Positions 3,285-60,424 of a stretch of 64,000 nt of DNA are shown piece by piece (the first letter of the stretch is position 1; each line of letters begins with the position of its first letter). The stretch comes from Candidatus Microgenomates bacterium (GTDB taxonomy: Bacteria > Patescibacteriota > Microgenomatia > Daviesbacterales > UBA10151): contig JACOYE010000008.1 of assembly GCA_016182045.1 (NCBI GenBank), forward strand, positions 502-64,501, given 5' to 3'. The translations under genes and the position numbers were made by a program. Under the pieces are notes generated by a model. The model saw nothing but the letters and a program-made list of their open reading frames with translations. It ran no database searches and had not been told where the DNA came from.

Positions 3285-3350
3285 GTCATCGCGAGGCTAC
3301 GAAGTAGCCGTGGCGATCTAATAAGATTGCTTCGCTACGCTCGCAATGAC
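3285..3350. repeat. intergenic GC-rich palindromic element (GTCATCGCGAG...CTCGCAATGAC), a member of the repeat family also found inside CDSs
   Basis: Imperfect ~66 bp palindrome with GTCATYSCGAG termini and an internal hairpin GGCTAC-GAA-GTAGCC. It is much more GC-rich than its surroundings. Confidence 0.6.
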
Positions 3351-9610: not shown

Positions 9611-9696
9611 TTTTCTATACCCTACTTTCCATTTTCTCTTAATTTTAAATTTTTAATTTGTAATTTTTAATGAAAATTTAAAATTTTAAATTTCAA

Positions 9697-9730
9697 ACTC
9701 CGTTATCTTCTAATTAGAAGATAACGGAGT
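9697..9730 (-). terminator. perfect 15-bp hairpin (ACTCCGTTATCTTCT-AATT-AGAAGATAACGGAGT) overlapping the rpsF stop codon, followed by a T-rich stretch on the minus strand; possible attenuator between rpsF and ssb
   Basis: The inverted repeat is visible in the sequence, and downstream on the minus strand is TTGAAATTTAAAATTTTAAATTTTC. Confidence 0.4.
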
Positions 9731-12917: not shown

Positions 12918-14535
12918 AAACAGTCTCACCTAACTTATGAATTCCTAAAATCTCCTTCACTTTCCTTATTATAGCTTTTGAGGAAATCTCTTCATAATCC
13001 AAAAGCTCTTGTGGTTTACCGCTTTTGGGCATTTTTTTAACTGCCAGAGAATATATCTTCCTATTTTGATTTGCTAAAGCAGACGCAACTGCCTCTCCTA
13101 TTCCTCCCTCTTGAAAATGATCTTCCACAGTTATTAGAGCTTTTGTCTCATCTTGAGCTTTCTTAAGAGTATACATATCCAGTGGTTTAACCGAATAAAG
13201 ATCAATTACTCTAATTGTTATCCCCATCTTTTTTAACTGATCAAATGCTTGTAATGCTTCATAAACTGTAATCCCAGCTGCCACCACAGTAACCTTATCT
13301 TCCTGAGATTGTTTCAAAATTTTACTTCCACCAATGGGAAATTTTTCATCATTTTTATATAAAAGAGGCATTTCTTTTCGGGTGGTTCTGATATAGACAA
13401 TTCCCTTGTGTTTGGCTGCCTCTTCCACTAATTTTTCTGTTGAGGTAGCATCCGATGGGTATAAAACTACACTTTTCAAAAGTGTCCTGAACATGGCAAT
13501 ATCCTCAAGGCCCATCTGGGATGACCCATCTTCACCAATGGATACTCCGGCATGGGAGCCGACAAATTTAATATTGACTCCGGAATACTGACTCATCCGG
13601 ATTTGATCAAAGGCCCGGGTAAAAAAGGCGGCAAAAGTGGAGACAAAAGGAATCTTGCCCATCTGGGACAAACCGATTGCCACTCCCACCATATTCTGCT
13701 CGGCAATAAACATCTCAAAAAATCTCTCAGGATATGCCTTTTTAAAAATTTCTGAATAAGTGGAATTAGAAACCTCGGCATCTAAAACTACCATGTTAGG
13801 AAACTTGGGGAATATCCTTACCAAAGCATTTCCATAAGCCTTTCTTGTCGCCACCAGATCACCTTGAGCATATTTGACAGAGTCAGTATAATTTTTTGAA
13901 CCGACTCTGTCATCCCGAGCGACTCCGACGTAAGTCGGAGGAGTCGAGGGATCTGGCTCGGCAATTTTTCCACGCAACTTCACATCCATATTTCCCAGCT
14001 CCTTTAAAGCTTTCTCCAACTCCTCAGAATTCAGTGCCTTACCATGCCATCCGTTCCGATCCTCCAAAAAAGATATTCCCTTACCTTTAATTGTTTTGGC
14101 CACAATCACAATTGGTTTATCTTTTACTTTTTGAGCTTTTTTAAAAGCATCCATAATTTCCTTAAAATTGTGACCATTTATCAAAATAGTCTCCCATCCA
14201 AAAGCAGCAATTCTTTTTGAGTAAGCTTTTATATTATGACCATACATGGTCTGGCCTCTTTGGCCTAATCTGTTAACATCCAAAATACCCACCAGATTAT
14301 CCAATTTATAGTGGGCGGCAATTTGAATTGCTTCCCAGACAGCCCCTTCTGCCATTTCACTATCACCTAACAGTACATAGGTTTTGTAACCTGATTTATC
14401 AACGTACTTGGCATTTAATGCCATCCCCATTCCAATAGAAAGACCCTGCCCCAAGGAACCGGTGGCTGCCTCCGTATATGGGAAAAGCATGGTTGGGTGA
14501 CCCTCCAACTTAGAGCCGAATTTTCTTAAAGTCAA
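12916..14535 (-). CDS. tkt: transketolase main body (TPP, Pyr and C-terminal domains); the reading frame has no ATG and continues from the N-terminal fragment in another frame
   Basis: LEGHPT...GSLGQGL...VLLGDSEMAEGAVWEA (TPP-binding) and later a ...SQMGLEDIAMFR-like Pyr domain. An in-frame repeat insert lies at 13905-13958. Confidence 0.8.
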   Translation of the reverse strand: MTLRKFGSKLEGHPTMLFPYTEAATGSLGQGLSIGMGMALNAKYVDKSGYKTYVLLGDSEMAEGAVWEAIQIAAHYKLDNLVGILDVNRLGQRGQTMYGHNIKAYSKRIAAFGWETILINGHNFKEIMDAFKKAQKVKDKPIVIVAKTIKGKGISFLEDRNGWHGKALNSEELEKALKELGNMDVKLRGKIAEPDPSTPPTYVGVARDDRVGSKNYTDSVKYAQGDLVATRKAYGNALVRIFPKFPNMVVLDAEVSNSTYSEIFKKAYPERFFEMFIAEQNMVGVAIGLSQMGKIPFVSTFAAFFTRAFDQIRMSQYSGVNIKFVGSHAGVSIGEDGSSQMGLEDIAMFRTLLKSVVLYPSDATSTEKLVEEAAKHKGIVYIRTTRKEMPLLYKNDEKFPIGGSKILKQSQEDKVTVVAAGITVYEALQAFDQLKKMGITIRVIDLYSVKPLDMYTLKKAQDETKALITVEDHFQEGGIGEAVASALANQNRKIYSLAVKKMPKSGKPQELLDYEEISSKAIIRKVKEILGIHKLGETV

Positions 14536-18033: not shown

Positions 18034-19083
18034 ATGCATAAACTGACTGTTTTAGTATCTTTGATATTACTGGGAATAGCTGGTTTTGTTATTTTTAATA
18101 GAGTACCACAAGTCATTCCGCCTCAGACCGAAGATAAAAAAGAAGTCCCCCGCTTTGAAGTGATAGCCAGAAATTTAGAAGTTCCCTGGGCTTTGGCATT
18201 TTTGCCTGATGGAAAGATCTTAGTAACAGAAAGAAAAGGTATTGTAAAACTAGTAGATAAAAATGGAGCAGTAACAGAGGTGGGTAAGATAAATGTCACA
18301 CAGGTTAGTGAAAGTGGATTACATGGGATAGCTATCGATCCAAAATTCTCAGAAAATCATTATATTTACTTATATTATACTTACTCAACAAATGGTGATA
18401 ACACATTTAACAGAGTTTCCAGATTTAATTTTGATAGTAGTTTAAAGAGTGAAAAGATCATTATTGATCAGATACCTGGAGCCCCTAACCATGATGGAGG
18501 TAGAATTAAGTTTGGTCTAGGTAACATGCTTTACATCACCACCGGTGATGCCCAAAATCCATCTTTGGCTCAAGACAAGGAGTCATTTGCAGGAAAAATC
18601 TTAAGAGTCACTCAGGAAGATAAAATAGAGATTTTCTCCTATGGCCATAGAAACCCGCAAGGAATTACTTGGGATGACATGGGTAATCTATGGGAAACAG
18701 AACACGGACAGACAGCAACTGATGAGATAAATCTTATCCAACCAGTACGAAATTATGGCTGGCCAATTATTAGAGGAGATCAATCTCAAAAAGATATGGC
18801 TTCCCCCTACATACATAGTGGTTCCAATACTTGGGCACCAGCTGGAGTGGCTTTTTTCAACGGCTCACTTTACTTTGGAGGATTAAGAGGCCAGGCTCTT
18901 TTTGAATATAATATTGAAAGAAAGCAGTTGAAAGAACATTTTAAAGGACAATTTGGTAGACTCAGGGAGGTTGTTTTGGGACCGGACAATATGCTTTATA
19001 TCACCACCTCAAACAGAGATGGTAGAGGTAATCCTCAACCTGAGGATGACAAAATCATCCGTATGAATCCAGAAAAACTTTAG
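18034..19083 (+). CDS. PQQ-dependent soluble sugar (glucose/sorbosone) dehydrogenase-family beta-propeller protein
   Basis: Signal/transmembrane segment, then FLPDGKILVTERKG...GLHGIAIDPKF...GHRNPQGITWD, typical of the SGDH/YliI family. Confidence 0.7.
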   Translation: MHKLTVLVSLILLGIAGFVIFNRVPQVIPPQTEDKKEVPRFEVIARNLEVPWALAFLPDGKILVTERKGIVKLVDKNGAVTEVGKINVTQVSESGLHGIAIDPKFSENHYIYLYYTYSTNGDNTFNRVSRFNFDSSLKSEKIIIDQIPGAPNHDGGRIKFGLGNMLYITTGDAQNPSLAQDKESFAGKILRVTQEDKIEIFSYGHRNPQGITWDDMGNLWETEHGQTATDEINLIQPVRNYGWPIIRGDQSQKDMASPYIHSGSNTWAPAGVAFFNGSLYFGGLRGQALFEYNIERKQLKEHFKGQFGRLREVVLGPDNMLYITTSNRDGRGNPQPEDDKIIRMNPEKL

Positions 19084-26687: not shown

Positions 26688-27772
26688 GTTAAGACTTTTT
26701 CCAGTTTACCTTTCTGGATCGCTTCTTTAATCTCCATTGCCACTCTTTTACCTATAGAAATATTTTGTCCGTACAAATATCCGCTGTAAGGGGTTGCAAA
26801 AATTCCAGGAGATCCTGGCATTCTGGGTGAAACATCAAAAACTATAATTTCTTTTTTAGGAGGTCCTGGTGTTATAACAGTTTGTAATGCAAACGGGCCA
26901 ATAACACCTGGCGGTACCAAATCTTTTGTAGCTTTTACAAATTTTTCTCCCAAAGAAAATGCATCCTCTAAAAGTGATTCCAAAACTGTCACAGCAATAT
27001 GACCTGCTTCTTCATACTTGACTCCAATTTTTTTCATCACATCTTCTCCATAATGTGCTGGCAGTTTTGTTAATCCTTCTATATTGGTCTGCCTTCTGGT
27101 ATCAGTTCCAATCAGCTCTAACCTAGAGTTAAGGGGAGAATAGAAAAAGTCAAAATTAACCTGTACACCAACAATAAACTCCTCCATAACTGCTTGGTTT
27201 ATTTGCTCTTGAGTAAATCTTCCCAACCCTAATCCTTGTTTTACACCTATTTCATATTCCTTAAAAGATTCAGCAAAGAAAAATGCTCTTTCAAATCCTC
27301 TCATCTTTTCCAAGACTTTAACAATACAAAGTCTGTCAATACTTTTTGGATCTTTAAATTGTTTTGGGTATCTAATATTTGCTTTATCTAATAAATCATA
27401 CTGATTAGGTTTTACTCCCCGTTCTTCTACTTTTAATAAAAACCTATTTCCAAACATTGGTATTTTAAATTTTTTCTCAATTGCCTCATAATCATTGATG
27501 TAAACTTCAAAAGATCTATGTGGAATAAATATGCCGTTTCTTTTTATCAACTGCTTTTGAACTTCGGGTTTTAAGATGTCTGAGAACTTTGCCAATTCTA
27601 TTACTTCATCAACACATCCCAACTCATTTTCACTTTTGTAATATTTTGCATAAGTTTTGTCTCTGCCTTTTTGCACAATTACCAAAGTTTTAAACCCCTC
27701 ATCTTTGGCCCCACGGCATACATCAAGTGCTGAATGAGAACCTAATACTGCAATGGTATAACTTTTATTCAT
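26684..27772 (-). CDS. purP: archaeal-type PurP-family ATP-grasp enzyme (FAICAR synthetase-like), paralog 1
   Basis: N-terminus IAVLGSHSALDVCRGAKDEGF and a PurP-like ATP-grasp body; 362 aa. Confidence 0.65.
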   Translation of the reverse strand: MNKSYTIAVLGSHSALDVCRGAKDEGFKTLVIVQKGRDKTYAKYYKSENELGCVDEVIELAKFSDILKPEVQKQLIKRNGIFIPHRSFEVYINDYEAIEKKFKIPMFGNRFLLKVEERGVKPNQYDLLDKANIRYPKQFKDPKSIDRLCIVKVLEKMRGFERAFFFAESFKEYEIGVKQGLGLGRFTQEQINQAVMEEFIVGVQVNFDFFYSPLNSRLELIGTDTRRQTNIEGLTKLPAHYGEDVMKKIGVKYEEAGHIAVTVLESLLEDAFSLGEKFVKATKDLVPPGVIGPFALQTVITPGPPKKEIIVFDVSPRMPGSPGIFATPYSGYLYGQNISIGKRVAMEIKEAIQKGKLEKVLT

Positions 27773-27832
27773 AATTTAAAATTTTTAATTTTTAATTTGA
27801 ATTCAAATTTTAAATTTCAAATTTGAAATTTT
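27773..27832. repeat. AT-only intercistronic element with perfect palindromes AATTTGAATTCAAATT and AAATTTCAAATTTGAAATTT; member of the AT-rich intercistronic repeat family
   Basis: Shares the TTTAAATTTTTAATTT and AAATTTTAAATTTCAAA blocks with 9641-9695, 53502-53607 and 59756-59869. Confidence 0.5.
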
Positions 27833-28849
27833 TCAATCTAAAACTTCCTTTAACTGATCTTGCTTAATAGCATTCTTAATCTCCCTTGCAATACGTCTTC
27901 CAGTACTCATTGGTTCTTTATAAAGTAAATAAGTATACGGTGAACCATTAATAAAAAAGTTTGTTCCAGCCACAATTCTTGCTGAAATTTCAATCACATA
28001 AATTTCCTCCGATGAAGTTATAATGGTCTCCAAACAAAATGGGCCAAAAAGTCCTTTTGGTGGTATCAGTCTCTTTGACACATCAATCACTCTGTCTGCC
28101 ATAGCCACAGCCTCTGCAAGCATTGATTCCCTTACAGCCATGGGGATATTGGCAACAACTTCAAAGGTTGGTTCTATACTAATTCCTCGCTGATTTTTGG
28201 CAGGAATTCGACCTAGCGAATCAACATTGGTTTCATATCTTTTATCAACACTCATAAGCTCCACTTTTTTGCTTAATGGTGAATAAAAGAAATGAAAATA
28301 AACCGGCACTCCAATTACATACTCTTGTACCATAAACCTTTCTTCGCTAAAGGTTTTGAGTTTTTCATCTAACTCTTTTTGATTTCTGGCAGTAAAATAT
28401 CCTTTTCCTCCTGCTGCCCCATATGATTTCACAATTACTGATCTATCAATTTTATCTCCTTTTCTAAACTTGTGTGGTACTTTAATACCAGATTTTTCCA
28501 TCCATTCCCTTTGCATTTTTCTATTCTCTTCCCAATCCAATACAGCCTTATTTCCAAAATAGGCAACTTGCATTTTTTTATTTTCATCCATCCCCAAATA
28601 TGCAACAAATGATCCGTGTGGAATTATTATTGAATTTCTTTTTATGAGACCTTTCTCAAGATTGGGAAAATCAGACCACTTATCAATCAATAAAATATCG
28701 TCAATAAAATTATCATAAGAAGAATAAAGTGTTTTTCTATCCGGAGTACAAACAACAGCGGTTTTAAAACCCTCATCTTTTGCGCCTTTGAGGATTTGTA
28801 AGGCGGAGTGAGATCCTAAAGTGACAATGGTTATGTTCTTAATTCCCAT
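27833..28849 (-). CDS. purP: archaeal-type PurP-family ATP-grasp enzyme, paralog 2
   Basis: N-terminus ITIVTLGSHSALQILKGAKDEGF; 338 aa; about 35% identical to paralog 1 by eye. Confidence 0.65.
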   Translation of the reverse strand: MGIKNITIVTLGSHSALQILKGAKDEGFKTAVVCTPDRKTLYSSYDNFIDDILLIDKWSDFPNLEKGLIKRNSIIIPHGSFVAYLGMDENKKMQVAYFGNKAVLDWEENRKMQREWMEKSGIKVPHKFRKGDKIDRSVIVKSYGAAGGKGYFTARNQKELDEKLKTFSEERFMVQEYVIGVPVYFHFFYSPLSKKVELMSVDKRYETNVDSLGRIPAKNQRGISIEPTFEVVANIPMAVRESMLAEAVAMADRVIDVSKRLIPPKGLFGPFCLETIITSSEEIYVIEISARIVAGTNFFINGSPYTYLLYKEPMSTGRRIAREIKNAIKQDQLKEVLD

Positions 28850-31863: not shown

Positions 31864-33381
31864 TTATTCCCATTCCATTGTTGCCGGGGGTTTGGTGGTG
31901 ATGTCATAAACTACCCGGGAAACTCCTGGGACTTCATTAACTATTCTGGATGAGATTTTCTGCAAAATCTCATACGGCAGTTTAGACCAGACAGTTGTCA
32001 TCACATCTTTGGACTCAATAATTCTTACTGCCATAACTTCTAAGTGGGCCCGCTCATCCCCTTTGACAGCCGTACTTTTGGTATTTGTTAAAATTGCAAA
32101 ACTCATATAAACTTTGCCATAAAGCTCGGCTTTTTTGATTTCCTCTAAAACAACTGCATCTGCCTGTTGCTGTCTTTCCAAACGCTCCTTTGTTACCTCC
32201 CCAATAATCCTGATTGCTTGACCCGGACCTGGAAAAACTTGTTTGAAGACAACTTCTTTTGGTAACCCCAATTTTTCTCCAATTAACCTAACTTCATCTT
32301 TATAAAAATCCCGCAAGGGCTCAAGAAGTTCCAAGTTCATCTCATCAGGCAATCCCCCCACATTATGATGCGATTTAATCTTATCTGCTTTTTTGGTCCC
32401 TTTACTTTCAATCACATCAGAATAAATTGTTCCCTGGGCCAAAAACTTTACCCCTTTTAACTTTTTTGCTTCTCTTTCAAATAATTCTATATAGATTTTG
32501 CCAATGGTTTTTCTTTTTTCCTCCGGATCCGTAATACCTTTGAGGGCTGAAAGAAATTCCTTCTCTGCCTCAACAATGATCGGGGTAATTTTTAAATGTT
32601 TTTGGAAAATTTGTAAAACTTCCTCTTTAGTTCCTACCCTCATCAGTCCGCTTTCAATATAAATGGGATATAAATTTTTGCCAATGGCTTTTCCAATAAG
32701 AGTTGCTGCGACAGTTGAGTCAACACCTCCAGAAACAGCACAGATAATTTTGTTATTTCCCACCCTTTCTTTGATATCTTTAATAACCTTTTTAATATCA
32801 ATCTTTTTTTTGGAAATCTTAAGTCCGCAAATATTTTGGGCAAAGTTTATCAGTATTTCGTTACCAAAAACAGTATGATCTACCTCAGGATGAAACTGGA
32901 CCCCAAAAATCTTTTTGTCTAAATTTGCTACAGCTGCTGCTTTAACATTTTCAGTACTTCCCAAATATGTAAACCCTTTAGGAATAGTTACTACGCTGTC
33001 ACCATGACTGACCCAGACAATGGAATTATTCTCCACACCTTGTAGGATAATTCCTTCATTTATGATATTAAGATTTGCCGGCCCATATTCTTTATGTCCC
33101 CCAACTACTTTCCCTCCTAAAAGATGGGCAGTCAGCTGCCAACCGTAACAAATACCAAGAATTGGAATTCCCAAACTAAAAATTTTTTTATCAATAGTAG
33201 GGGCGCCTTTTGCATAAACAGAAGCCGGCCCTCCGGAAAGAATAATCCCTTTTGGCTTAAACTTCTTAATCTCGGAAAGAGCATCTTCAGGCTGGATAAT
33301 AGTCACAGCAATGCCGTGATCCCGCAACCTTCTGCCAATCAAATGACAAGTTTGTGATCCAAAATCAACTATAATAATCAT
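31864..33381 (-). CDS. guaA: GMP synthase (glutamine-hydrolysing)
   Basis: N-terminal GATase (IIIVDFGSQ...GICYG), ATP-PPase SGGVDSTV and C-terminal ...KPPATMEWE. Confidence 0.9.
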   Translation of the reverse strand: MIIIVDFGSQTCHLIGRRLRDHGIAVTIIQPEDALSEIKKFKPKGIILSGGPASVYAKGAPTIDKKIFSLGIPILGICYGWQLTAHLLGGKVVGGHKEYGPANLNIINEGIILQGVENNSIVWVSHGDSVVTIPKGFTYLGSTENVKAAAVANLDKKIFGVQFHPEVDHTVFGNEILINFAQNICGLKISKKKIDIKKVIKDIKERVGNNKIICAVSGGVDSTVAATLIGKAIGKNLYPIYIESGLMRVGTKEEVLQIFQKHLKITPIIVEAEKEFLSALKGITDPEEKRKTIGKIYIELFEREAKKLKGVKFLAQGTIYSDVIESKGTKKADKIKSHHNVGGLPDEMNLELLEPLRDFYKDEVRLIGEKLGLPKEVVFKQVFPGPGQAIRIIGEVTKERLERQQQADAVVLEEIKKAELYGKVYMSFAILTNTKSTAVKGDERAHLEVMAVRIIESKDVMTTVWSKLPYEILQKISSRIVNEVPGVSRVVYDITTKPPATMEWE

Positions 33382-34181
33382 TTTCCCTCCTTTGCAAACT
33401 TTATCATATCTTCAAATATAAAAGCTCCATGAGGTTTAATTATTTTCTCTCTTCTCCAGTTGGGGTATTGGGTAACATCAACAAACTTTTCCGGATGTGG
33501 CATCAATCCTAATACTCTTCCAGAAGGATCAGTCACTCCAGCGATAGCATTTAAAGATCCGTTTGGATTCTCAGGATATTTTTGTGTGGGATTGCCTTGC
33601 TCATCAACATACCTAAAAGTGACCAGATTCTCATCTTCAATTTTTTTAATAATTCCGGGACTAGAGAAAAATTTACCTTCTCCATGATTTACTGAAAACC
33701 AACCCACTTGATTATTTTCTTTTAAAAATACACAGTTACTTTTATTACTCTTTATTCTTACCCATCTGCATTCAAAATGTCCACTACTATTTGCGGCCAA
33801 AGTGGCATCCATTTTGCCTAAATTTCCAAAAGGCAAAAGCCCGGTTCTTATTAAAACCTGAAATCCATTACAGATTCCGATAATTAATCCCCCTCTTTTT
33901 CTAAAATTTTCTATTTCCTCTCTTAAAAAACTTACTAGCTCAATTGCCCAAATTTTTCCGGATGCCACATCATCTCCATAAGAAAATCCTCCAGGCAAAG
34001 CCAGAATATGAAAATCTTTCAGAGTTTTGGATTTGTTCCTTAACTCATTAACATGAACAAACTGTGGACTCCCCCCAAACTTTTTAAAAGCATAAAAAAG
34101 TTCATTATCACAATTAGTCCCATCAGATTGTAGTATACAAACATTTACTTCTCGCCCTGAGCGAAGTCGAAGGGTTTTCAT
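33378..34181 (-). CDS. purQ: phosphoribosylformylglycinamidine synthase glutaminase subunit (PurQ), with an 11-aa repeat-derived N-terminal insert
   Basis: GTNCDNE...LPGGFSYGDD class-I GATase. Residues 3-13 (TLRLRSGREVN) are encoded by a copy of the GC-rich repeat. Confidence 0.85.
   Translation of the reverse strand: MKTLRLRSGREVNVCILQSDGTNCDNELFYAFKKFGGSPQFVHVNELRNKSKTLKDFHILALPGGFSYGDDVASGKIWAIELVSFLREEIENFRKRGGLIIGICNGFQVLIRTGLLPFGNLGKMDATLAANSSGHFECRWVRIKSNKSNCVFLKENNQVGWFSVNHGEGKFFSSPGIIKKIEDENLVTFRYVDEQGNPTQKYPENPNGSLNAIAGVTDPSGRVLGLMPHPEKFVDVTQYPNWRREKIIKPHGAFIFEDMIKFAKEGK
34149..34175. repeat. GC-rich repeat copy (CTCGCCCTGAGCGAAGTCGAAGGGTTT) inserted in frame after codon 2 of purQ
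   Basis: Near-identical to the inner unit at 35891-35917 in purL; GC-rich relative to its flanks. Confidence 0.6.
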
Positions 34182-34825
34182 AAGTTTTTAATATCTTCTA
34201 TAGATAATTCATCAAATGCACTAATGACTCGATCAGCATTTTGCAGCTTATCTTTTGTCACACTTGTTGCTATGGCAATGCATTTCATACCTGCAGCTTT
34301 GGCTGCCTTTATTCCGCTTGGTGCATCTTCAATAACTAAACAGTCCGATGATGAAATTCCAAGTTTTTTAGAAGTTAACAAAAATATCTCAGGATTTGGC
34401 TTACCTTGTTTAACTTCATCACCTGAGACCACTGCACTAAATTTTTCCTTAATAGAAAGACTGCTGAGAATAATCGAGATAAACTTCTGGTTTGTTGAAG
34501 AAGCGAGTGCTAGGGGATATCCATGTTTTTGAAGTTTCTCAATAAGATCAAGTGAGCCTGGTACAAGAGGGATAGATTTATCCGAAAGTTTTTTATACAC
34601 TATTTCCCATTTCTTTTTTCTCAGTTTCTCAATATCTTTTATAAGATGGCGTTTTGCCATATCTTTAAACATCTCTGTATCCTTCCAGCCAGAGTAACTG
34701 TTTATTATTTCCTCAGGTGTTATATGAATTCCAATAGTGGCAAAGACTTGGCTTTCTGCCCCAGATTGAATCGCTTCTGTTCTGGTAATAACTCCATCCA
34801 TATCAAAAATTACTGCTTTAATCAT
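34178..34825 (-). CDS. HAD-superfamily hydrolase, subfamily IA (beta-phosphoglucomutase-like)
   Basis: DxDGV motif I (IFDMDGVIT) and motif IV (IEDAPSGIKAAKAAG). Confidence 0.75.
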   Translation of the reverse strand: MIKAVIFDMDGVITRTEAIQSGAESQVFATIGIHITPEEIINSYSGWKDTEMFKDMAKRHLIKDIEKLRKKKWEIVYKKLSDKSIPLVPGSLDLIEKLQKHGYPLALASSTNQKFISIILSSLSIKEKFSAVVSGDEVKQGKPNPEIFLLTSKKLGISSSDCLVIEDAPSGIKAAKAAGMKCIAIATSVTKDKLQNADRVISAFDELSIEDIKNL

Positions 34826-37695
34826 GGAAATATCTCTTTCATTGGCGCTTGCCAGGCTTGTTGTAATCTGTCCATATCAACTGTAAATAATCCATCAACC
34901 ACCAACTTCTCATCCTGTGTAGTTTTTCCTAATATTTTGTAAGGCACTCCTTCAAATAATTTTTTAGCAGTTGTCTCATTTTCAACTTCCATTACAAAAC
35001 ATCCAGCTGTTTCATTAAGAAGAAAACCACCTCGAAGGTGGGCTTTCTTGTCCCGAGCGAAGTCGAGGGAGACTCCTTCGAGGTGAAGCCGAACCCCACA
35101 ATTTCCGCCAACACACATTTCAAAAATGGTTGTAATCAGGCCTCCTTCTGAAACATCATGGCATGCTAATACTTTTCCACTAACAATTGCTTTGTGCACT
35201 TTATCCAAAACCTTCGGTAAAACTTTCAAATCAACTCTGGGGATGCTACTTTCCAAATCCTGCTTACCAACCAGTACAATTGTTGACCCAGCTTTTTTAA
35301 AATCAGAAGAAACAGTTTTTTTAACATCAGGAATTTTGCCAAATACAGACATGCAAAGTGTTGGAGGACTGTGTATCACCACCCCACTAGAGCCACGATA
35401 TGTGGCAGATAAACTGTCTTTGCCAGAAATCACCGGAATCTTTAAAGTCTTCATAAAATCACAAACAGCATCTACTGATCTATCAAGCGACCACAACCAT
35501 TCTTTATCAGGAAACGGCCAAATATAGTTATTAACCAGCGATGCATCTTTGTAATTACCACCAACTGCCACATAATTAGAAATTGCCTCAGTTGCAGACC
35601 AGACACTTCCCCAATATGGATCCATCATGCTAAATTCAGGATTTAATCCATGAGAAACAACCATTCCATAGGGTTTATCCAAAAGCGGCTTAATTACTGC
35701 TGCATCATTTGGCCCATCCATTCCCACCCCTGCAAAAGGATGCAAAGCATTTGTTCCCTGAACATTATGATCATACATCCTCAAAATTGGCTCTTTTGAA
35801 TTAATATTTCCATTAGCTAAAACTTTCTCTAAAACCTTCGCCCAAACCATTTTGTCATTCCGAGCGATTAGCGAGGAATCTCTCAACTTGCCCGCCCTGA
35901 GCGAGGCCGAAGGGTTTGAGATACTCACATTCGTCAGAGATTCTTCACTTCGTTCAGAATGACGAGGAGAGATAGCTCTCATCACCCTTTGTGGCAATCC
36001 TTCAAACAAAAAACTCATTTCCAAATCTCCCACTTTTTCTTTTCCATAAAATACCTGTAATCTTTTACTGCCGTCAAACTCTGCAATCTCTGAAGCCTGG
36101 ACATTATATTTTTGACATATCTTTAAAAATTCTTTCAGATTATCTTTTGAAAGAATTATTAACATTCTTTCTTGAGATTCTGAAAGGAAAATTTCCCAAG
36201 GAGCAAGTCCTTGATATTTCAAGGGTGCCTTTTCCAAATGAACAGTCGCTCCAGTTTTTACTCCCATCTCACCAATAGCAGATGAAAATCCACCAGCTCC
36301 CAAATCTTGAACTGCCCTTATTAAATCTTTATCCCGCGCTTCTAAAATTGCATCAAATACTCTTTTTTCCTCAATTGCATTTCCAATTTGCACAGCTTGG
36401 GAGTTAACTTCCATGGTTTTTTCACTCATCTCAGCAGAGGAAAAAGTGGCTCCGTGTATTCCATCTCTTCCCGTCCTTCCTCCGATAACCACCCCTACAT
36501 CACCAATTTTTGGATAGCCTTTTTTAGCTTTACTTTTAGGTAAAATTCCATATGATCCAACCAGTACAATTGGTTTGGCTCGAAAATCCTCATGAAAATG
36601 AAATGAACCATTATTTGTAGGTATCCCCACTCTATTGCCATAATCCCTAACAGCAGCCACTACTCTTTTTAACATATAGTCAGGAGGCAATGTCCCGGCA
36701 GGTAATTTACTTTTATCTAAATCATAAGGAGCAAGACAAAAAATATCTGTTGATACCAAACTTTTTGCGCCCTGGCCTGTTGCTACCACATCTCTAAAAA
36801 CTCCACCAGATCCAGTCATTGCCCCACCATATGGTTCTATTGCAGAGGGTGCATTATGAGTTTCTGCTTTTCCATTAATTGCCCAACCTTCATAAAAATC
36901 CATCACCCCTGCATTGTCCACAAACGCTGAGACAATATTTTTGTTATGTTTCAGCGCTTCCTTTTTAATTCTTTCAAAAAGCGGTGCCTTGTTTTTCCCA
37001 TCAACTAAAAGTCTTGCTTTAAAAGTTTTATGAGCACAATGTTCACTCCAAGTTTGGGCTAGAGTCTCAAGTTCTAAATCTGTGGGATCTCTTTTTATCT
37101 TTTGAAAATAATTTTGTATCACTTTCATCTCTTCTAAATTTAAAAACAACTTATCTTTTGAAAGTTCTAATAGCTGTTCATCATTGATCCGCCTTAGGCG
37201 GATAATATTCGTTTTTGCAGGAATGTCTTTGATAAGAAGAGTCTTTTGTTTCTCCTTCACAAAATGCTCAACCATTTCATTAAGAAGATGCAATTTCCTG
37301 GCAATATCCTCTATCTCTTGATGTGTTACTTTTCCATAAAAGCCATATTCATGAGAGGAGTCAGCTGCAATAAGTTTAATTCCCAAATCCTCTGCAGTTT
37401 TAAGAATTGACCCAACTTCTGGATTCATTACACCTGGTCTGTAAGCAATCTCTATAATCTGATTTGCTCCTTTTATTATTGGAGAGTTTAAAGTATATTC
37501 CTGATAAATACCTTCACAAAAAACTGTCTCCGCTAAAACTTTTGCCTCTCTCTCGCTTACACCTTCCAATCTATAAACTTTGGCAGTCTCCACTTTTGTG
37601 ATGTTTTTGATTCCCATCTGATAAATGTCATTTAAAACTCCCTCACCAATCAGGTCTTTTCCCATAACATTTTTTACTCTGATTATATGTATCAT
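34822..37695 (-). CDS. purL: phosphoribosylformylglycinamidine synthase large subunit (PurL) with a ~185-aa N-terminal extension of PurS-like modules and two repeat-derived in-frame inserts
   Basis: Core PurL motifs (WSEHCAHKTF, GGRTGRDGIHGATFSS, AIGEMG). The N-terminal region resembles PurS twice. Inserts lie at 35854-35963 and 35049-35095. Confidence 0.85.
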   Translation of the reverse strand: MIHIIRVKNVMGKDLIGEGVLNDIYQMGIKNITKVETAKVYRLEGVSEREAKVLAETVFCEGIYQEYTLNSPIIKGANQIIEIAYRPGVMNPEVGSILKTAEDLGIKLIAADSSHEYGFYGKVTHQEIEDIARKLHLLNEMVEHFVKEKQKTLLIKDIPAKTNIIRLRRINDEQLLELSKDKLFLNLEEMKVIQNYFQKIKRDPTDLELETLAQTWSEHCAHKTFKARLLVDGKNKAPLFERIKKEALKHNKNIVSAFVDNAGVMDFYEGWAINGKAETHNAPSAIEPYGGAMTGSGGVFRDVVATGQGAKSLVSTDIFCLAPYDLDKSKLPAGTLPPDYMLKRVVAAVRDYGNRVGIPTNNGSFHFHEDFRAKPIVLVGSYGILPKSKAKKGYPKIGDVGVVIGGRTGRDGIHGATFSSAEMSEKTMEVNSQAVQIGNAIEEKRVFDAILEARDKDLIRAVQDLGAGGFSSAIGEMGVKTGATVHLEKAPLKYQGLAPWEIFLSESQERMLIILSKDNLKEFLKICQKYNVQASEIAEFDGSKRLQVFYGKEKVGDLEMSFLFEGLPQRVMRAISPRHSERSEESLTNVSISNPSASLRAGKLRDSSLIARNDKMVWAKVLEKVLANGNINSKEPILRMYDHNVQGTNALHPFAGVGMDGPNDAAVIKPLLDKPYGMVVSHGLNPEFSMMDPYWGSVWSATEAISNYVAVGGNYKDASLVNNYIWPFPDKEWLWSLDRSVDAVCDFMKTLKIPVISGKDSLSATYRGSSGVVIHSPPTLCMSVFGKIPDVKKTVSSDFKKAGSTIVLVGKQDLESSIPRVDLKVLPKVLDKVHKAIVSGKVLACHDVSEGGLITTIFEMCVGGNCGVRLHLEGVSLDFARDKKAHLRGGFLLNETAGCFVMEVENETTAKKLFEGVPYKILGKTTQDEKLVVDGLFTVDMDRLQQAWQAPMKEIFP
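35049..35095. repeat. GC-rich repeat copy in frame near the PurL C-terminus (encodes ..GVRLHLEGVSLDFARDK..)
   Basis: TCCCGAGCGAAGTCGAGGGAGACTCCTTCGAGG; its core matches the 34149-34175 element. Confidence 0.5.
35854..35963. repeat. composite (nested) GC-rich palindromic element in frame in purL, adding about 37 aa (ISPRHSERSEESLTNVSISNPSASLRAGKLRDSSLIARNDK)
   Basis: Outer termini are GTCATTCCGAGCG...CGTTCAGAATGAC. The inner unit CGCCCTGAGCGAGGCCGAAGGGTTTG matches the purQ copy. Confidence 0.65.
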
Positions 37696-39032
37696 TGCTT
37701 CACCCTTTCTATGTCACGCCAACCAATGTCAGTACGATAATGCAGGTTATCTCCTTCAATACTAATTAGGGATATTGCCTTGTATACTTTTTCCCTGGCA
37801 GCGATTACATCCTTTCCATCAGCCATTACATAAAATACACGCCCACCATTTACCACCCAATCTTTTCCATCTCTTTTAATCCCTGCTCCATAAACTTTTA
37901 CTCCACTTTTAATTGCTTTATCAATACCAAAAACCTTTTTTCCTTTAACAGATAAATAATCAATCGGATAACCTTTTGCTGTCCCAGCCACCACAACTCT
38001 CACTTTGTTATCAATCTCCAATTTAAGATTTTTTATCTGACCAAAAATTATGGCATCAGCAACTTCTATAAAATCATTTTTTATGGACGGAAGAATAACT
38101 TGGGCTTCCGGGTCTCCCCATCTGGCATTAAATTCTATAACATACACATTTCCATTAATTACCATTCCTCCTAAATATAAAACTCCGATATATGGTCTGC
38201 CTTCTTGTCTTAAACCATCAACAGTTTTTTGAAAGATTTTTGATATTTTATTTTTGATATTTGCATTTACTATTAAAGGATTTGAGACACAACCCATACC
38301 ACCAGTGTTTGGACCTAAATCTCCATCATTAACTCTCTTGTAATCTTGTGCATATCCCACTACTTTAAAATTTTTCCCATCACATAAAGCAAAAGCAGAA
38401 AACTCCTCACCTTCCAACCACTCTTCTAAAAGATAAGTTTCTCCGCTTTTACCAAACTTTGACATTTTTCTGATTGCATCAATAGCCTCATTTGCATTCT
38501 TTGCTCCAATAGCTCCTTTTCCTTCAGCTAACCCGGATGCTTTTACAAACCAACTTCTTTTGGGATAATTTTTAACAAACTTTATTCCTTCTTTCTCTGT
38601 ATAAAAAATTTTATATTTAGGTATAGGGATTAAATATCCTCCCACGAATGATCTTGCCCAGGCTTTATCCCACTCAATTTGTCCAGCGAGCTTAGTCGGT
38701 CCAATAACTGGAACTCCGTTTAACATTAAAGCATCTACTAATCCAGCCTCTACCGCATTATCTTGTGCCACATCCACCAAATCCACTTTTTCCTCTCTTG
38801 CAATTTGCAAAATCTCAGCAACCGAATTGGTTTTAAGATTTTGATATGTCACAACATGCTTTCTAGTATTAATCTGCATTAAATCATTCCCGGGCACCAC
38901 CAAAATTTTCCCTACCTGTTTTGACTGCCCATATTTATCCACTAAAGCAGCTCCTCTCCCCCCGCCATCTATAATCAAAATGGTTTTTCTATTTTTTTTA
39001 GCTTCAAATTGTTTCATTGTTATCGCGGCCAC
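37692..39032 (-). CDS. purD: phosphoribosylamine--glycine ligase
   Basis: ILIIDGGGRGAALV, an ATP-grasp body and the GPNTGGMG motif. Confidence 0.9.
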   Translation of the reverse strand: MAAITMKQFEAKKNRKTILIIDGGGRGAALVDKYGQSKQVGKILVVPGNDLMQINTRKHVVTYQNLKTNSVAEILQIAREEKVDLVDVAQDNAVEAGLVDALMLNGVPVIGPTKLAGQIEWDKAWARSFVGGYLIPIPKYKIFYTEKEGIKFVKNYPKRSWFVKASGLAEGKGAIGAKNANEAIDAIRKMSKFGKSGETYLLEEWLEGEEFSAFALCDGKNFKVVGYAQDYKRVNDGDLGPNTGGMGCVSNPLIVNANIKNKISKIFQKTVDGLRQEGRPYIGVLYLGGMVINGNVYVIEFNARWGDPEAQVILPSIKNDFIEVADAIIFGQIKNLKLEIDNKVRVVVAGTAKGYPIDYLSVKGKKVFGIDKAIKSGVKVYGAGIKRDGKDWVVNGGRVFYVMADGKDVIAAREKVYKAISLISIEGDNLHYRTDIGWRDIERVKQ

Positions 39033-53095: not shown

Positions 53096-53501
53096 GGTGG
53101 ATCCCCAACAGATGACCTACACCATGCTCCACTAAGTTTCTTATCTCCTCATCTACTGGTATCCCATCAATTGAAGCATCCTCCACTGCCTGCGGATAGG
53201 AAATGACAATGTCACCAAGCCTTAAAAATTTATCGGGCGAGGACACAAAACCGATTCTGGGAATATGTTGTAAGTTTGATTGATTAGGATCCTCAAGGGC
53301 AAAAGATAATATGTCTGTGGTGGAGTCAATCCCGCGAAACTTCCGATTAAGCTCGTGCATCTTCCGATCTCCCACAATATTGACCCCCAGCTCTATTCTG
53401 CCGTGGATGCGGTGTCTCCGTAGAGCCTCTAAAACTACCACTCTTATAGCCGCTCTATCTATTCCATATCTTGGATCTGAAGAAACAATAATATTAATCA
53501 T
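53088..53501 (-). CDS. ybeY: rRNA maturation endoribonuclease YbeY
   Basis: H-x3-H-x5-H zinc motif (HGVGHLLGIHHE) and RKMHELNRKFRGIDSTTDILSF. Confidence 0.85.
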   Translation of the reverse strand: MINIIVSSDPRYGIDRAAIRVVVLEALRRHRIHGRIELGVNIVGDRKMHELNRKFRGIDSTTDILSFALEDPNQSNLQHIPRIGFVSSPDKFLRLGDIVISYPQAVEDASIDGIPVDEEIRNLVEHGVGHLLGIHHE

Positions 53502-53607
53502 AAATTTTAAATTCTAAATTTTTAATTTTTATTCAAATATAAATGTCTTAATTTTAAATTTTTAAACATTTAAAATTGATTTAAAATTTCAAATTGAAAA
53601 TTAAAAA
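53502..53607. repeat. AT-rich intercistronic repeat R1 (106 bp) between yqeY and ybeY; about 90% identical to R2 at 59756-59869
   Basis: Alignment of the two regions shows only one 11-nt indel and a few substitutions. Confidence 0.6.
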
Positions 53608-54051
53608 TTATTCAGATAACCTTTCCTTAACTATATTACTAACAACACTTCCATCAGCTCTACCAGCCACCTTACCCATAACTAATCCCATTACTCTTCC
53701 CATATCATCCAAACTTTTGGCCCCTAACTCATTTATAGAATCTTGGACTAATTTAGTCAACTCCTCATTTGAAAGTTGGGCCGGCATATATGCTTGCAAA
53801 ATCTTTTCTTCAGCTTCTTCTTTCTGTGCTTGATCTTCCCTGCCACCTTGTCTAAAACCCTCTGCTGCTTCTTTTCTTTTTTTAACTTCCCGTTGAGCAA
53901 CCTGGATCGCGTCTTGATCAGTTAAGTTACCACCCTTTTGAATCTCTAGATTGTGGATCTCTGACAAAAGCAGTCTTAAGGTGACAACCTTTACTTCATC
54001 CCTATCTAGCTGAGCTTGTTTTAAATCAGACTGCAATTGATCAATCAACAT
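53608..54051 (-). CDS. GatB/YqeY-domain protein
   Basis: MLIDQLQSDLKQAQLDRDEVKVVTLRLLLSEI... typical YqeY. Confidence 0.8.
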   Translation of the reverse strand: MLIDQLQSDLKQAQLDRDEVKVVTLRLLLSEIHNLEIQKGGNLTDQDAIQVAQREVKKRKEAAEGFRQGGREDQAQKEEAEEKILQAYMPAQLSNEELTKLVQDSINELGAKSLDDMGRVMGLVMGKVAGRADGSVVSNIVKERLSE

Positions 54052-54600: not shown

Positions 54601-55692
54601 CTATCCTCCTACCATCTTCTTTAGAAGATCCAGTGTTCTGGTCTGTCTTAATGCATGCCTTAAATGTAATCTGGGTTCTTGGGCTTCAAACTGTCTTTTA
54701 ACTCTGGCATCTTGAATCTTATCTATTTCTGCTTGTAACTCCTGGTCTGTAATACTGACATTTTCCATCCTGGCAATATCTGCCAAACCCAATTCCATTC
54801 TGACATTTTTCTCAGCCTGCACCCTCCATTCACTTTTTAACTGTTCCAAAGTTTTCCCCTGACCCCTAAGATAGTCTTCCAAAAGTAACCCCATGTCAGC
54901 CACTCTTCTTTGTAAAGAAACTAACATTCTATTTAACTCATCTTGAATTAAAACCTCAGGTAATTCCACTTGAGTCATCTTTTCCACCTCTTGTAGAATA
55001 GCCTCTTCATAATCTAGCTCATTATTGTAAGATGCATTTGCCTCCAGATCTTTCCTGATCTTTGCCCTTAAATCATTTAAATCTAATGCCCCCATGGCCT
55101 TGGCAAAAACATCATCAGGAACTTGGGCCTGACCATTGGTGGGTGTTTGTTGTCCTTGCTGGAAACTTATTGATCCAGTAACTTTGTCATTCTGGGGAGC
55201 GCTAGCGACTCCAGAATCCTTTCCCACTGGCTGCCTCACCTTCCATCTTTTATAAAGATCGTCAATAACTTTTTGGACCTCCTCCTCAGTCACTGATTTT
55301 GGGGTTGGTCTGGTAACTTTAATGGCTTTATAATTTCCCACAGAAACTGCTGGTCTATTGGTGATGGTGGCCTTAAATTGAAGTTGCTGACCCTTAACAA
55401 AAGAAATTAAATCATATTTTGGATAGTCAATCGGGATAATGTCTGTGCCTTTAAGCGCCTCTATTAAAAAATTGGGGTAGGCAGCTTTTAAAACTTCATC
55501 CTGAAGCTTAATACCCAAATTTTGCTCAACCATGGGTAGGGGCGCAGCACCTTTTCTGAAACCGGGCAACTCCACATCTTGAGCCATTTTTTGAAGTGTC
55601 TGATCCCAAGTTTGCTGTAAATCTGCCCAAGGAACAGTCACAGTCACCTCAACTATAGATTTAGGAAGTTTTTGAATATTTTTAGAAATCAT
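54601..55692 (-). CDS. tig: trigger factor (short form, 363 aa)
   Basis: N-terminal ribosome-binding domain with the GFRKGAAP signature. Confidence 0.75.
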   Translation of the reverse strand: MISKNIQKLPKSIVEVTVTVPWADLQQTWDQTLQKMAQDVELPGFRKGAAPLPMVEQNLGIKLQDEVLKAAYPNFLIEALKGTDIIPIDYPKYDLISFVKGQQLQFKATITNRPAVSVGNYKAIKVTRPTPKSVTEEEVQKVIDDLYKRWKVRQPVGKDSGVASAPQNDKVTGSISFQQGQQTPTNGQAQVPDDVFAKAMGALDLNDLRAKIRKDLEANASYNNELDYEEAILQEVEKMTQVELPEVLIQDELNRMLVSLQRRVADMGLLLEDYLRGQGKTLEQLKSEWRVQAEKNVRMELGLADIARMENVSITDQELQAEIDKIQDARVKRQFEAQEPRLHLRHALRQTRTLDLLKKMVGG

Positions 55693-59743: not shown

Positions 59744-59755
59744 ATTTAGTTTAGT

Positions 59756-59869
59756 GAATTTTAAATTCTAAATTTTTAATTTTTATTCAAATCTGAATGA
59801 CTAAATTTTAAATTTTTAAACATTTAATCATTAAATATTGATTTAAAATTTCAAATTGAAAATTAAAAA
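59756..59869. repeat. AT-rich intercistronic repeat R2 (114 bp) between frr and rseP; near-identical to R1
   Basis: See R1. Confidence 0.6.
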
Positions 59870-60424
59870 TTATATTTGAGTCAGTTCTTCTTCCTTAGCC
59901 TTCCCCAAACTTTCCACTTCTAATATCTTTTTATCTACCAGCTCCTGCAGTAATTTTTCCCTTCTAAAAAATTCATCTTCCCCATACTTTCCATCCTCCT
60001 GTTCTTTTTTCCATAAATTCCTAGAATCATGCCGTATTTGTCTTATCTCCACCCGGGCTTGTTCCATCTTTTGATGCAAAAGTTTGATAAATTCTTCCCT
60101 CCTTTCGGAAGTCAGTGGTGGGATTGGCAGACGGATTAATGTACCTTCATTTGAGGGATTAAATCCCAACTTTGCTTCTTGGATGGCCTTTATCACATTA
60201 TCCAAAATGGAAGCATCCCAGACTTGAACTGTTAAAAGTGTGGGTTGTGGAGCAGAAATATTTCCCACCTCCACCAATTTCATCTTTGATCCATAGGCAT
60301 CAACAGGGATATTTTCCACTAAAGCCGGATTAGCCCTCCCCGCTCTAATCCCAGCAATCTCCATCTTAAAATGGTGTATGGCTGCCTCTATCTTTTCGCT
60401 TAGTTGGGTCAGGACTGGATCCAT
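59870..60424 (-). CDS. frr: ribosome recycling factor
   Basis: IRAGRANPALVENIPVDAYG... RRF signature. Confidence 0.9.
   Translation of the reverse strand: MDPVLTQLSEKIEAAIHHFKMEIAGIRAGRANPALVENIPVDAYGSKMKLVEVGNISAPQPTLLTVQVWDASILDNVIKAIQEAKLGFNPSNEGTLIRLPIPPLTSERREEFIKLLHQKMEQARVEIRQIRHDSRNLWKKEQEDGKYGEDEFFRREKLLQELVDKKILEVESLGKAKEEELTQI

Follow-up and report, generated by a model that had tools for sequence, protein, structure and literature searches.

The 64-kb stretch of contig JACOYE010000008.1 from a Candidatus Microgenomates bacterium (64,000 nucleotides, hereafter the window) raises the question of how a 110-nt palindromic segment came to lie in frame inside purL, and whether it was built by one repeat element inserting within another. 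A first-pass annotation made from the letters alone had proposed such a nested origin by two successive insertions. We think it likely that the segment is an in-frame mosaic of DNA hairpin repeats of the repetitive extragenic palindromic (REP) type, in which a 24-nt unit of a second subfamily, the B unit, was added in the loop of an older pair. The repeats would have spread by means of a nuclease acting on single-stranded DNA hairpins, and the mosaic would be translated into a disordered loop of the enzyme.

The host gene and the parts of the mosaic are laid out as follows (window coordinates).

34822-37695, minus strand: purL, a 957-amino-acid open reading frame (ORF) encoding a PurS-PurL fusion, with the mosaic in frame inside it
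35854-35963, no strand assigned: whole mosaic, consisting of arm 1, a central hairpin with an inserted 24-nt unit, a decayed spacer hairpin and arm 2
35853-35882, plus strand: arm 1, made up of a TGTC tag, the hairpin ATTCC-GA-GC-GATTA-GC-GA-GGAAT (35857-35879), a single C and the tail TC
35882-35890, plus strand: 5' half and loop of the central spacer hairpin, CTCAA-CTTG, with the insertion point directly 3' of it
35891-35914, plus strand: inner 24-nt unit of the B subfamily, CCCGCCCTGAGCGAGGCCGAAGGG, exactly eight codons (PSASLRAG)
35915-35936, plus strand: 3' half of the central hairpin, TTTGAG, followed by the decayed remains of either a spacer hairpin or a partial copy of an arm; the counterpart in locus L186 is TCTCGCATTCGCGAGA
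35937-35964, minus strand: arm 2, made up of a CGTC tag, the hairpin ATTCT-GA-AC-GAA-GT-GA-AGAAT, a single C and the tail TC

The arms share the consensus of a (C/T)GTC tag, the hairpin ATTC[Y]-GA-[R]C-GAA-G[Y]-GA-[R]GAAT and a following C. The arm stem has nine positions, including two G.A mismatches that flank a GCGAAGC mini-hairpin core, and its 5-bp outer stem begins with A-T/T-A. Arm 1 has a 5-nt GATTA loop in place of the canonical GAA, a variant that also occurs at the loci L007 and L186. The two additional nucleotides shift the coding frame off the TGA that a canonical arm contains (GAA TGA C). The tag is TGTC in arm 1, CGTC in arm 2 and a degenerate CGCC in the inner B unit; a B copy near the C-terminus of PurL, described below, has TGTC. 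The 13-mer GTCATTCCGAGCG at 35854-35866 (plus strand) has its inverted partner at 35951-35963 (minus strand), where the outer inverted arms had been placed by the first-pass annotation, and four matches with at most two mismatches exist in the window where 0.26 are expected. A 26-nt inner pattern, CGCCCTGAGCGAGGCCGAAGGGTTTG, lies at 35893-35918, and its only other copy in the window is at 34153-34178 (23/26 identities, or 88%, with 0 expected). This agrees with the earlier claim of about 90% identity between an inner unit at 35891-35917 and a copy at the purQ start, 34149-34175. The boundary of the B unit at 35891-35914 is ambiguous by 1 nt.

A 122-nt region around the mosaic folds to one long hairpin with an RNA stability of -46.8 kcal/mol (z = -4.8; none of 200 shuffles is as stable), and DNA folding of this region gives z = -4.6 and -3.6. 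Only one of the six reading frames is open across the 110 nt, and it is the one that purL uses. It codes for about residues 577-613 (RHSERSEESLTNVSISNPSASLRAGKLRDSSLIARND) within the linker 575-617, and the translation is the peptide that had been quoted for this segment. Miniature inverted-repeat transposable elements are defined by terminal inverted repeats together with a target-site duplication. The purL element has the former, but it does not belong to this class, for no target-site duplication accompanies either the outer pair or any of three clean 24-nt insertions.

We compared the orthologous linker DNA of nine loci (L001, L002, L003, L007, L008 and L186-L189) and found an empty site. 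L186 encodes a PurL (P0078) with 61% amino acid identity to that of the window, and its linker carries the arm pair together with the spacer at the corresponding position, GTCATTCTGAGCGTAGCGAAGAATTTCTCGCGAATGCGAGACTCAAA^CAAGTTGAGAGATCCTTCACTAATCGTTCAGGATGAC. Its global alignment with the window element has 76/90 identities (84%), a 2-nt indel and a single 24-nt gap. The bases opposite this gap, CCCTTCGGCCTCGCTCAGGGCGGG on the coding strand, are exactly the inner unit at 35891-35914, and in the plus orientation the empty site reads CTCAACTTG^TTTGAG. In the central spacer hairpin, CTCAA-A^CAAG-TTGAG, the insertion point is the loop. Of the 34 spacer bases to either side of the inner unit, 30 are common to the two loci, a similarity that none of 2000 shuffles equalled. 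The comparison supports an element-within-element insertion at the purL linker, as had been claimed. It also changes how the 20 nt beside arm 2 are read: we had considered a tandem duplication of the arm, and alignment with L186 makes a decayed first spacer hairpin the better description. Since other pairs with ACTTGTT centers are empty, such as an intergenic pair in L007, we infer that the 24-nt difference is a gain in the window lineage rather than a precise loss in L186.

Three units might instead have been joined side by side, or by recombination of two pairs such as an L008-like arm plus B pair and an L007-like pair. L008 carries a left arm that is identical to arm 2 (24/24) with the same junction and frame (ISPRHSERSEE), followed by a right arm of another type (CCTGAGG...CCGAAGG). 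In L007 the spacer is short and the right arm is the orthologous one, which shares the CTAATCG loop and differs by compensatory C-G to T-A changes; heterodimers are common among the metagenomic matches listed. However, such a joining is unlikely, because L186 has both arms and the spacer bases that flank the inner unit and differs by exactly 24 nt, and because the inner unit resembles the copies in the window purQ, the purL C-terminal loop and L001 rather than the right arm of L008. Insertion of the B unit into an existing pair accounts for these observations, and this half of the two-step history stands. The other half needs revision. The outer pair is old or recurrent at the linker and did not newly enter conserved PurL sequence; a piece of the original linker, PKTEKE, gave way to it. 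The linker of L189 retains only GTCATTCTACGCGGGGATGAC, an internally deleted remnant.

The B unit recurs at two further sites in the window.

35047-35070, plus strand: B unit in the purL C-terminal loop, CTTGTCCCGAGCGAAGTCGAGGGA, encoding SLDFARDK, within the loop of a palindrome at 35028-35085 (HLEGV^KAHLRG)
34152-34175, plus strand: B unit at the purQ N-terminus, codons 3-10, MK[TLRLRSGR]EVNVCILQ, a net 24-nt insertion after codon 2

The C-terminal site is a second nested insertion in the same gene, 0.8 kb from the linker mosaic. In the window and in L187 it reads CACCTCGAAGGAGTC[TCCCTCGACTTCGCTCGGGACAAG]AAAGCCCACCTTCGAGGTG, where the bracketed 24 nt are the B unit, and L007, L002 and L189 have the palindrome without them. 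The purQ copy is absent from the purQ genes of L001, L007 and L008. The inner unit is therefore a discrete 24-nt module, as copies of its subfamily are cleanly present or absent at both sites. In the window a gene for a HAD-family hydrolase (34178-34825) separates purL and purQ, and the purQ B unit lies 6 nt from its junction; in L007, L008 and L188 purQ directly follows purL.

A fourth case occurs in guaA of the Daviesbacteria locus L001 (9640-9720, codons ~33-53), where a B unit at about 9665-9690 sits in the loop of a tagged hairpin, GTCATCCTGAACTTG^[...]^TTTCAGGATC. This copy is identical to the window purL inner unit at 23 of 24 positions, and the hairpin replaces the helix ALEKIKELKPK of other GuaA proteins. 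The flanks AACTTG^...^TTT are common to the guaA and purL linker copies. Together with ACTTC^TTT in purQ and GCTTT^GAC in the purL C-terminal loop, these four cases hint at a target preference 3' of (A)CTTN.

The site that received the mosaic is the A2-B1 interdomain linker of PurL. Orthologs of this protein, which are named phosphoribosylformylglycinamidine synthase, come from Candidatus Daviesbacteria and other Microgenomates. An exact lookup of the window PurL matched no protein, and a contig scan with that one sequence gave six loci. Pfam matches give a layout of a PurS-like N-terminal domain, an FGAR-AT linker domain and two AIRS/AIRS_C units, and place the mosaic after the first AIRS_C (residues 397-550) and ahead of the second PurM-like half (from residue 639). 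We aligned 120 orthologs and delimited the linker by GLPQRVMKA and W(I/A)KxLEKVL. It is hypervariable in every one of them, with a length of 11-46 amino acids (median 22) compared to 43 in the window. The 37 amino acids first ascribed to the insertion are indeed in frame, but the site already holds a variable linker and the net extension over the median ortholog is about 21. A segment of the same length and sequence in every PurL would contradict an insertion, as the first-pass annotation recognized; the orthologs all have a linker here, yet it varies in length as stated and its sequence is unrelated.

About half of the PurL linkers carry peptides translated from palindromic repeats of several families, and about half contain no recognizable repeat. 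GTCAT...ATGAC elements occur in the linkers of 16-18 of 121 sequences, where each begins directly after a proline codon. A neighbor-joining tree of 61 PurLs is star-like, so that linker states are not polarizable on it, and linker types are scattered across it. Other recurrent linker peptides are THVKVAPSLRSHLNMP, HLRGA..VTSEVA..LLRGG, SRQSSVVSRQ and NNQDTITKIQT, carried by P0003, P0008, P0016, P0018, P0024, P0026, P0032, P0035 and others with a distribution that ignores the PurL tree. This scatter suggests repeated replacement or exchange of linker DNA.

An AlphaFold model of the window PurL built from 62 sequences has a mean predicted local distance difference test score (pLDDT) of 82.5 and a predicted template modeling score of 0.82, and it matches the FGAM synthetase structures 1T3T/6JTA with a template modeling score of 0.84. 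Its longest stretch with pLDDT <50 is residues 580-612, which lie within the linker element (575-617). The insert thus falls in an interdomain linker when it is placed on a structural model, a check that had been recommended at the outset, and the model predicts that the element is disordered. A shorter stretch below 50 (878-885) coincides with the second repeat insertion, and a third (643-648) has no relation to any repeat.

Related hairpins occur elsewhere in the window. A strict definition of the unit (tag, perfect 5-bp outer stem and GA...GA) finds three in the 64 kb, compared to 0.025 in shuffles. A more generic search for GTCAY plus a 5-bp stem did no better than shuffles and was given up for this definition. 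Looser inspection recognizes about nine units at six loci, and five of the six are intragenic and in frame. Besides those already described, they include the following.

3285-3350, no strand assigned: head-to-head pair of tagged hairpins, intergenic, downstream of an HtrA-like gene
13909-13952, plus strand: one tagged unit, its inner hairpin extended, lying in frame within the interdomain linker of transketolase
55186-55217, plus strand: single tagged unit, in frame in a trigger factor linker (DSGVASAPQNDK)

The loop of the transketolase unit holds an additional perfect 7-bp hairpin (CTCCGAC GTAA GTCGGAG). The window trigger factor has 363 amino acids and apparently lacks the peptidyl-prolyl isomerase domain. 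In all five singleton units the plus strand carries the tag. This strand is antisense to the host gene in each case and, judged by GC skew, is the C-rich one; five units are too few for significance. One more match lies in a dehydrogenase (GNPQPEDDK, 19031-19050), and we discounted it, by inspection only, as likely due to chance. The window also contains AT-rich direct and inverted repeats of ~70 nt (AATTTTAAATTTTTAATTT...) at 9631-9711, 27762-27843, 53492-53611 and 59745-59873, which are unrelated to the GC-rich hairpin units.

The arm is widespread beyond this genome. A census with the 25-mer GTCATTCYGARCGAAGYGARGAATC covered at least 120 metagenome stretches and 57 viral-collection stretches, and it found at least 194 copies in at least 177 unrelated loci. 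The GC content of these contigs ranges from 31% to 70%, and that of the window is ~38%. Among the copies listed, 186 of 194 have one of the four compensated Y/R combinations at two stem positions and eight have one of the twelve uncompensated ones. This dominance of compensated variants argues that the hairpin is under selection. Also among these matches, a T precedes GTC in 179 of 194, an ATGAC terminus follows within 100 nt downstream in 62 of 194, and 17 of the 165 that could be tested lie in long open frames, compared to five of six loci in the window.

Such recurrence bears on whether the palindromes could have arisen by chance, through ordinary drift of a low-complexity linker or replication slippage. 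The linker is hypervariable in length and sequence, and a degenerate partial arm copy of ~20 nt adjoins arm 2. However, the exact arm occurs with compensatory changes in all those unrelated loci, Tandem Repeats Finder detects no array in the purL element, the indels are clean 24-nt events, and shuffled sequences are expected to give only 0.025 to 0.26 matches. We regard this origin as very improbable.

Six of the 177 loci listed (L014, L043, L054, L057, L104 and L177) contain an ORF of ~90-110 amino acids with a GIY-YIG domain (PF01541, E = 1e-13 to 1e-16), and arms lie inverted on both sides of these ORFs or overlap the stop codon. The L043 and L057 ORFs end in ...DSSLRSE*, with the last codons and the stop provided by the repeat arm (GATTCTTCGCTGCGCTCAGAATGAC). 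For the six proteins all NCBIfam matches are below threshold, and the sole Protein Data Bank match is the UPF0213 protein 1zg2. A profile search with them retrieved more than 8000 homologs. The few that are named belong to Bacteroidales and Verrucomicrobiae.

Many of these homologs are found on very short contigs, and repeats often break or misjoin assemblies, so the purL mosaic might be suspected of being a repeat-driven chimeric join in a metagenome-assembled genome. An artifact of this kind is hardly credible and the most improbable of the alternatives. The ORF continues unbroken through the element in its only open frame, and related elements are present at the same codon position in the independent assemblies L007, L008, L186 and L189.

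The mosaic has features of several known repeat families. REPs and their assemblies, the bacterial interspersed mosaic elements and the REP doublets known as REPINs, consist of hairpin units with a 5' tetranucleotide tag (GTAG), and they form inverted doublets and mosaic clusters that are associated with RAYT transposases. The insertion sequence IS1397, which inserts into REP loops, is an earlier example of mobile DNA with palindrome loops as its target. In contrast, the tag in the window is GTC/CGTC, and the element that was inserted is a 24-nt repeat unit instead of an insertion sequence. No RAYT gene was noticed in the window ORFs that were read, although no profile search was aimed at RAYT. 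A second comparison is with the palindromic elements of Rickettsia. RPE-1 and its relatives were reportedly described by Ogata and coworkers in 2000 as palindromic repeats in frame in housekeeping genes, tolerated as an extra surface peptide, and RPE-1 is said to be a single element of ~100-150 bp. The likeness is one of layout, a palindromic repeat in frame in a housekeeping gene of a small-genome, host-dependent bacterium. As for these elements, the frame is open through the purL segment, orthologs lack it or differ, and it occupies a low-confidence interdomain loop. Unlike RPE-1, the window insert is a mosaic of 24-30-nt units.

In unit anatomy the window repeats resemble the CGTC/TGTC-tagged REPs that Di Nocera et al. 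(2013; PMC3733652) defined, a class to which Neisseria dRS3 and the Rickettsia conorii elements RPE-4 and RPE-6 belong. According to the passages of that paper considered here, these REPs have an unpaired CGTC (or TGTC/CCTC) at one palindrome end, a stem of 8-9 bp that starts with A-T pairs and a loop of 4-5 nt. They are mostly head-to-head dimers with no dedicated transposase, and intragenic dimers and clusters encode 20-82 amino acids (PMC3733652, same passages). The window units share the unpaired 5' (C/T)GTC tag, the A-T/T-A stem start and the short unpaired tail. They likewise form head-to-head dimers (the window pairs 3285-3350 and 35854-35963 and pairs in L007, L008 and L186), occur as single, dimeric and grouped intragenic copies, and mostly have no dedicated transposase adjacent. 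In contrast to the published stems and loops, however, theirs have a conserved tandem G.A mismatch and a loop of either 3 nt (GAA) or 5 nt (GATTA). The window further differs in having a unit in the loop of another unit, in the occupation of the same linker across a whole clade, and in its host, which belongs to the Candidate Phyla Radiation (CPR), a group not named in those passages. No report of REP-type repeats in CPR bacteria was found in the literature searched. The mosaic is of a known kind, intragenic CGTC-type REP or RPE-like repeats, found this time in a CPR bacterium.

The NTS repeats of Neisseria (CGTCATTCCCGCGMAVGCGGGAATCYRG; PMC11893778, Nat Commun 2025) connect this anatomy to an enzyme. 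SsnA, a GIY-YIG protein, cuts NTS only in single-stranded form, and cleavage in this system is strand-specific and next to the hairpin. Cutting needs the three bases that precede the palindrome (GTC), and binding needs the C that follows it. The gene layout is NTS-ssnA-NTS, and a role of the repeats in transformation has been demonstrated (PMC11893778). In their flanks NTS and the window arms are almost the same, with CGTCATTCC...GGAATC in NTS (PMC11893778) and GTCATTC...GAATC in the window arms. Both outer arms have GTC directly before and C directly after the palindrome (GTC-ATTC...GAAT-C), and the inner B unit has neither. The six GIY-YIG loci resemble the NTS-ssnA-NTS arrangement (PMC11893778) in that arms bracket ~100-amino-acid single-domain genes, a likeness by PF01541 domain and layout.

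We therefore consider the following course of events. Two head-to-head units would have given rise to an ~86-nt pair with a structured spacer in the PurL A2-B1 linker of several Microgenomates, and in the window lineage a 24-nt unit of the second subfamily was then, by comparison with the empty site, apparently added in the apical loop of the central hairpin. The DNA is most likely selfish or semi-domesticated. It probably spread by way of a trans-acting nuclease specific for single-stranded DNA hairpins; an Ssn-like enzyme is proposed because identical arms bracket the small GIY-YIG genes of other contigs, and its action in this genome is inferred rather than shown. Translation would continue through the mosaic, whose peptide would form a disordered loop on the PurL surface, in which case peptides spanning SISNPSASLRAGK are expected. 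It may persist because the linker is tolerant and only in-frame variants free of stops survive.

Several observations weigh against this reading. The 24 nt could, less probably, have been precisely lost in L186 instead of gained in the window lineage, and with only 61% identity between the two PurLs the pair shared with L186 could reflect independent insertion of the same composite. The published SRM motif HGTCWYN(0-2)YYVSBRHN(0-5)WNVSBRGN(0-2)RNCYNB has no match on either strand of the window, because of the G.A positions in these units. GIY-YIG genes were sought by a motif scan and tblastn in the window and in related Daviesbacteria loci totalling ~110 kb, with none detected, and this DNA showed no other candidate gene for a nuclease or transposase. 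The window and L186 elements are 84% identical compared to 70-73% for the flanking codons, and the 58-nt C-terminal composites of the window and L187 are identical at 57 of 58 positions compared to about 74%. Greater conservation of elements than of their flanks is not predicted for pure junk DNA. It may come from constraint by a recognizer protein, from gene conversion among copies or from a function in cis.

The last of these possibilities amounts to a different explanation, that the hairpin is kept for an action of the DNA or mRNA in cis, such as ribosome pausing at a domain boundary, mRNA processing or stability, or a site that modulates recombination of incoming single-stranded DNA. The very stable fold, this excess conservation, the placement of every intragenic window copy at an interdomain linker or terminus, and the part that NTS plays in Neisseria transformation (PMC11893778) would all fit. 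However, about half of the orthologs lack a recognizable repeat in the linker and the rest carry unrelated families, the same units are found between genes and in unrelated genes, and tolerance alone equally predicts the location in linkers. In addition, an Rfam search of 33000-38000 at E<=1 gave no match. Such a role is improbable overall, although it is the least so of the alternatives to a mosaic of mobile repeats.

A more specific proposal for the B unit is tentative, and we would not yet bet on it. The unit may act as a micro-element with site specificity, integrating 3' of (A)CTTN and preferably in the single-stranded apical loops of other REP hairpins, and the resulting mosaics, which are more conserved than the neighboring codons, may for that reason be under selection at the nucleotide level. 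If so, the B unit would build mosaics stepwise and add exactly eight codons each time. One reason for selection could then be an Ssn-like single-stranded DNA nuclease that controls recombination of DNA taken up by competence-dependent CPR bacteria.

For the annotation of CPR and other metagenomic proteins, these repeats would explain the recurrence of low-complexity peptides such as RHSERSEES, VIPSEARNL, RDSSLIxxNDK and HLRGA/TSEV. The recurrent use of the linker, the eight-codon module and the possible preference for loops and (A)CTTN targets are worth following. The purL mosaic extends Rickettsia-style repeat DNA within protein genes to the Candidate Phyla Radiation and connects the window repeats to the hairpin repeats of the Ssn nuclease. 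Its filled and empty sites are a clean natural example of repeats stacking within one another, and they show how the linkers of an enzyme can be lengthened in steps of eight codons.

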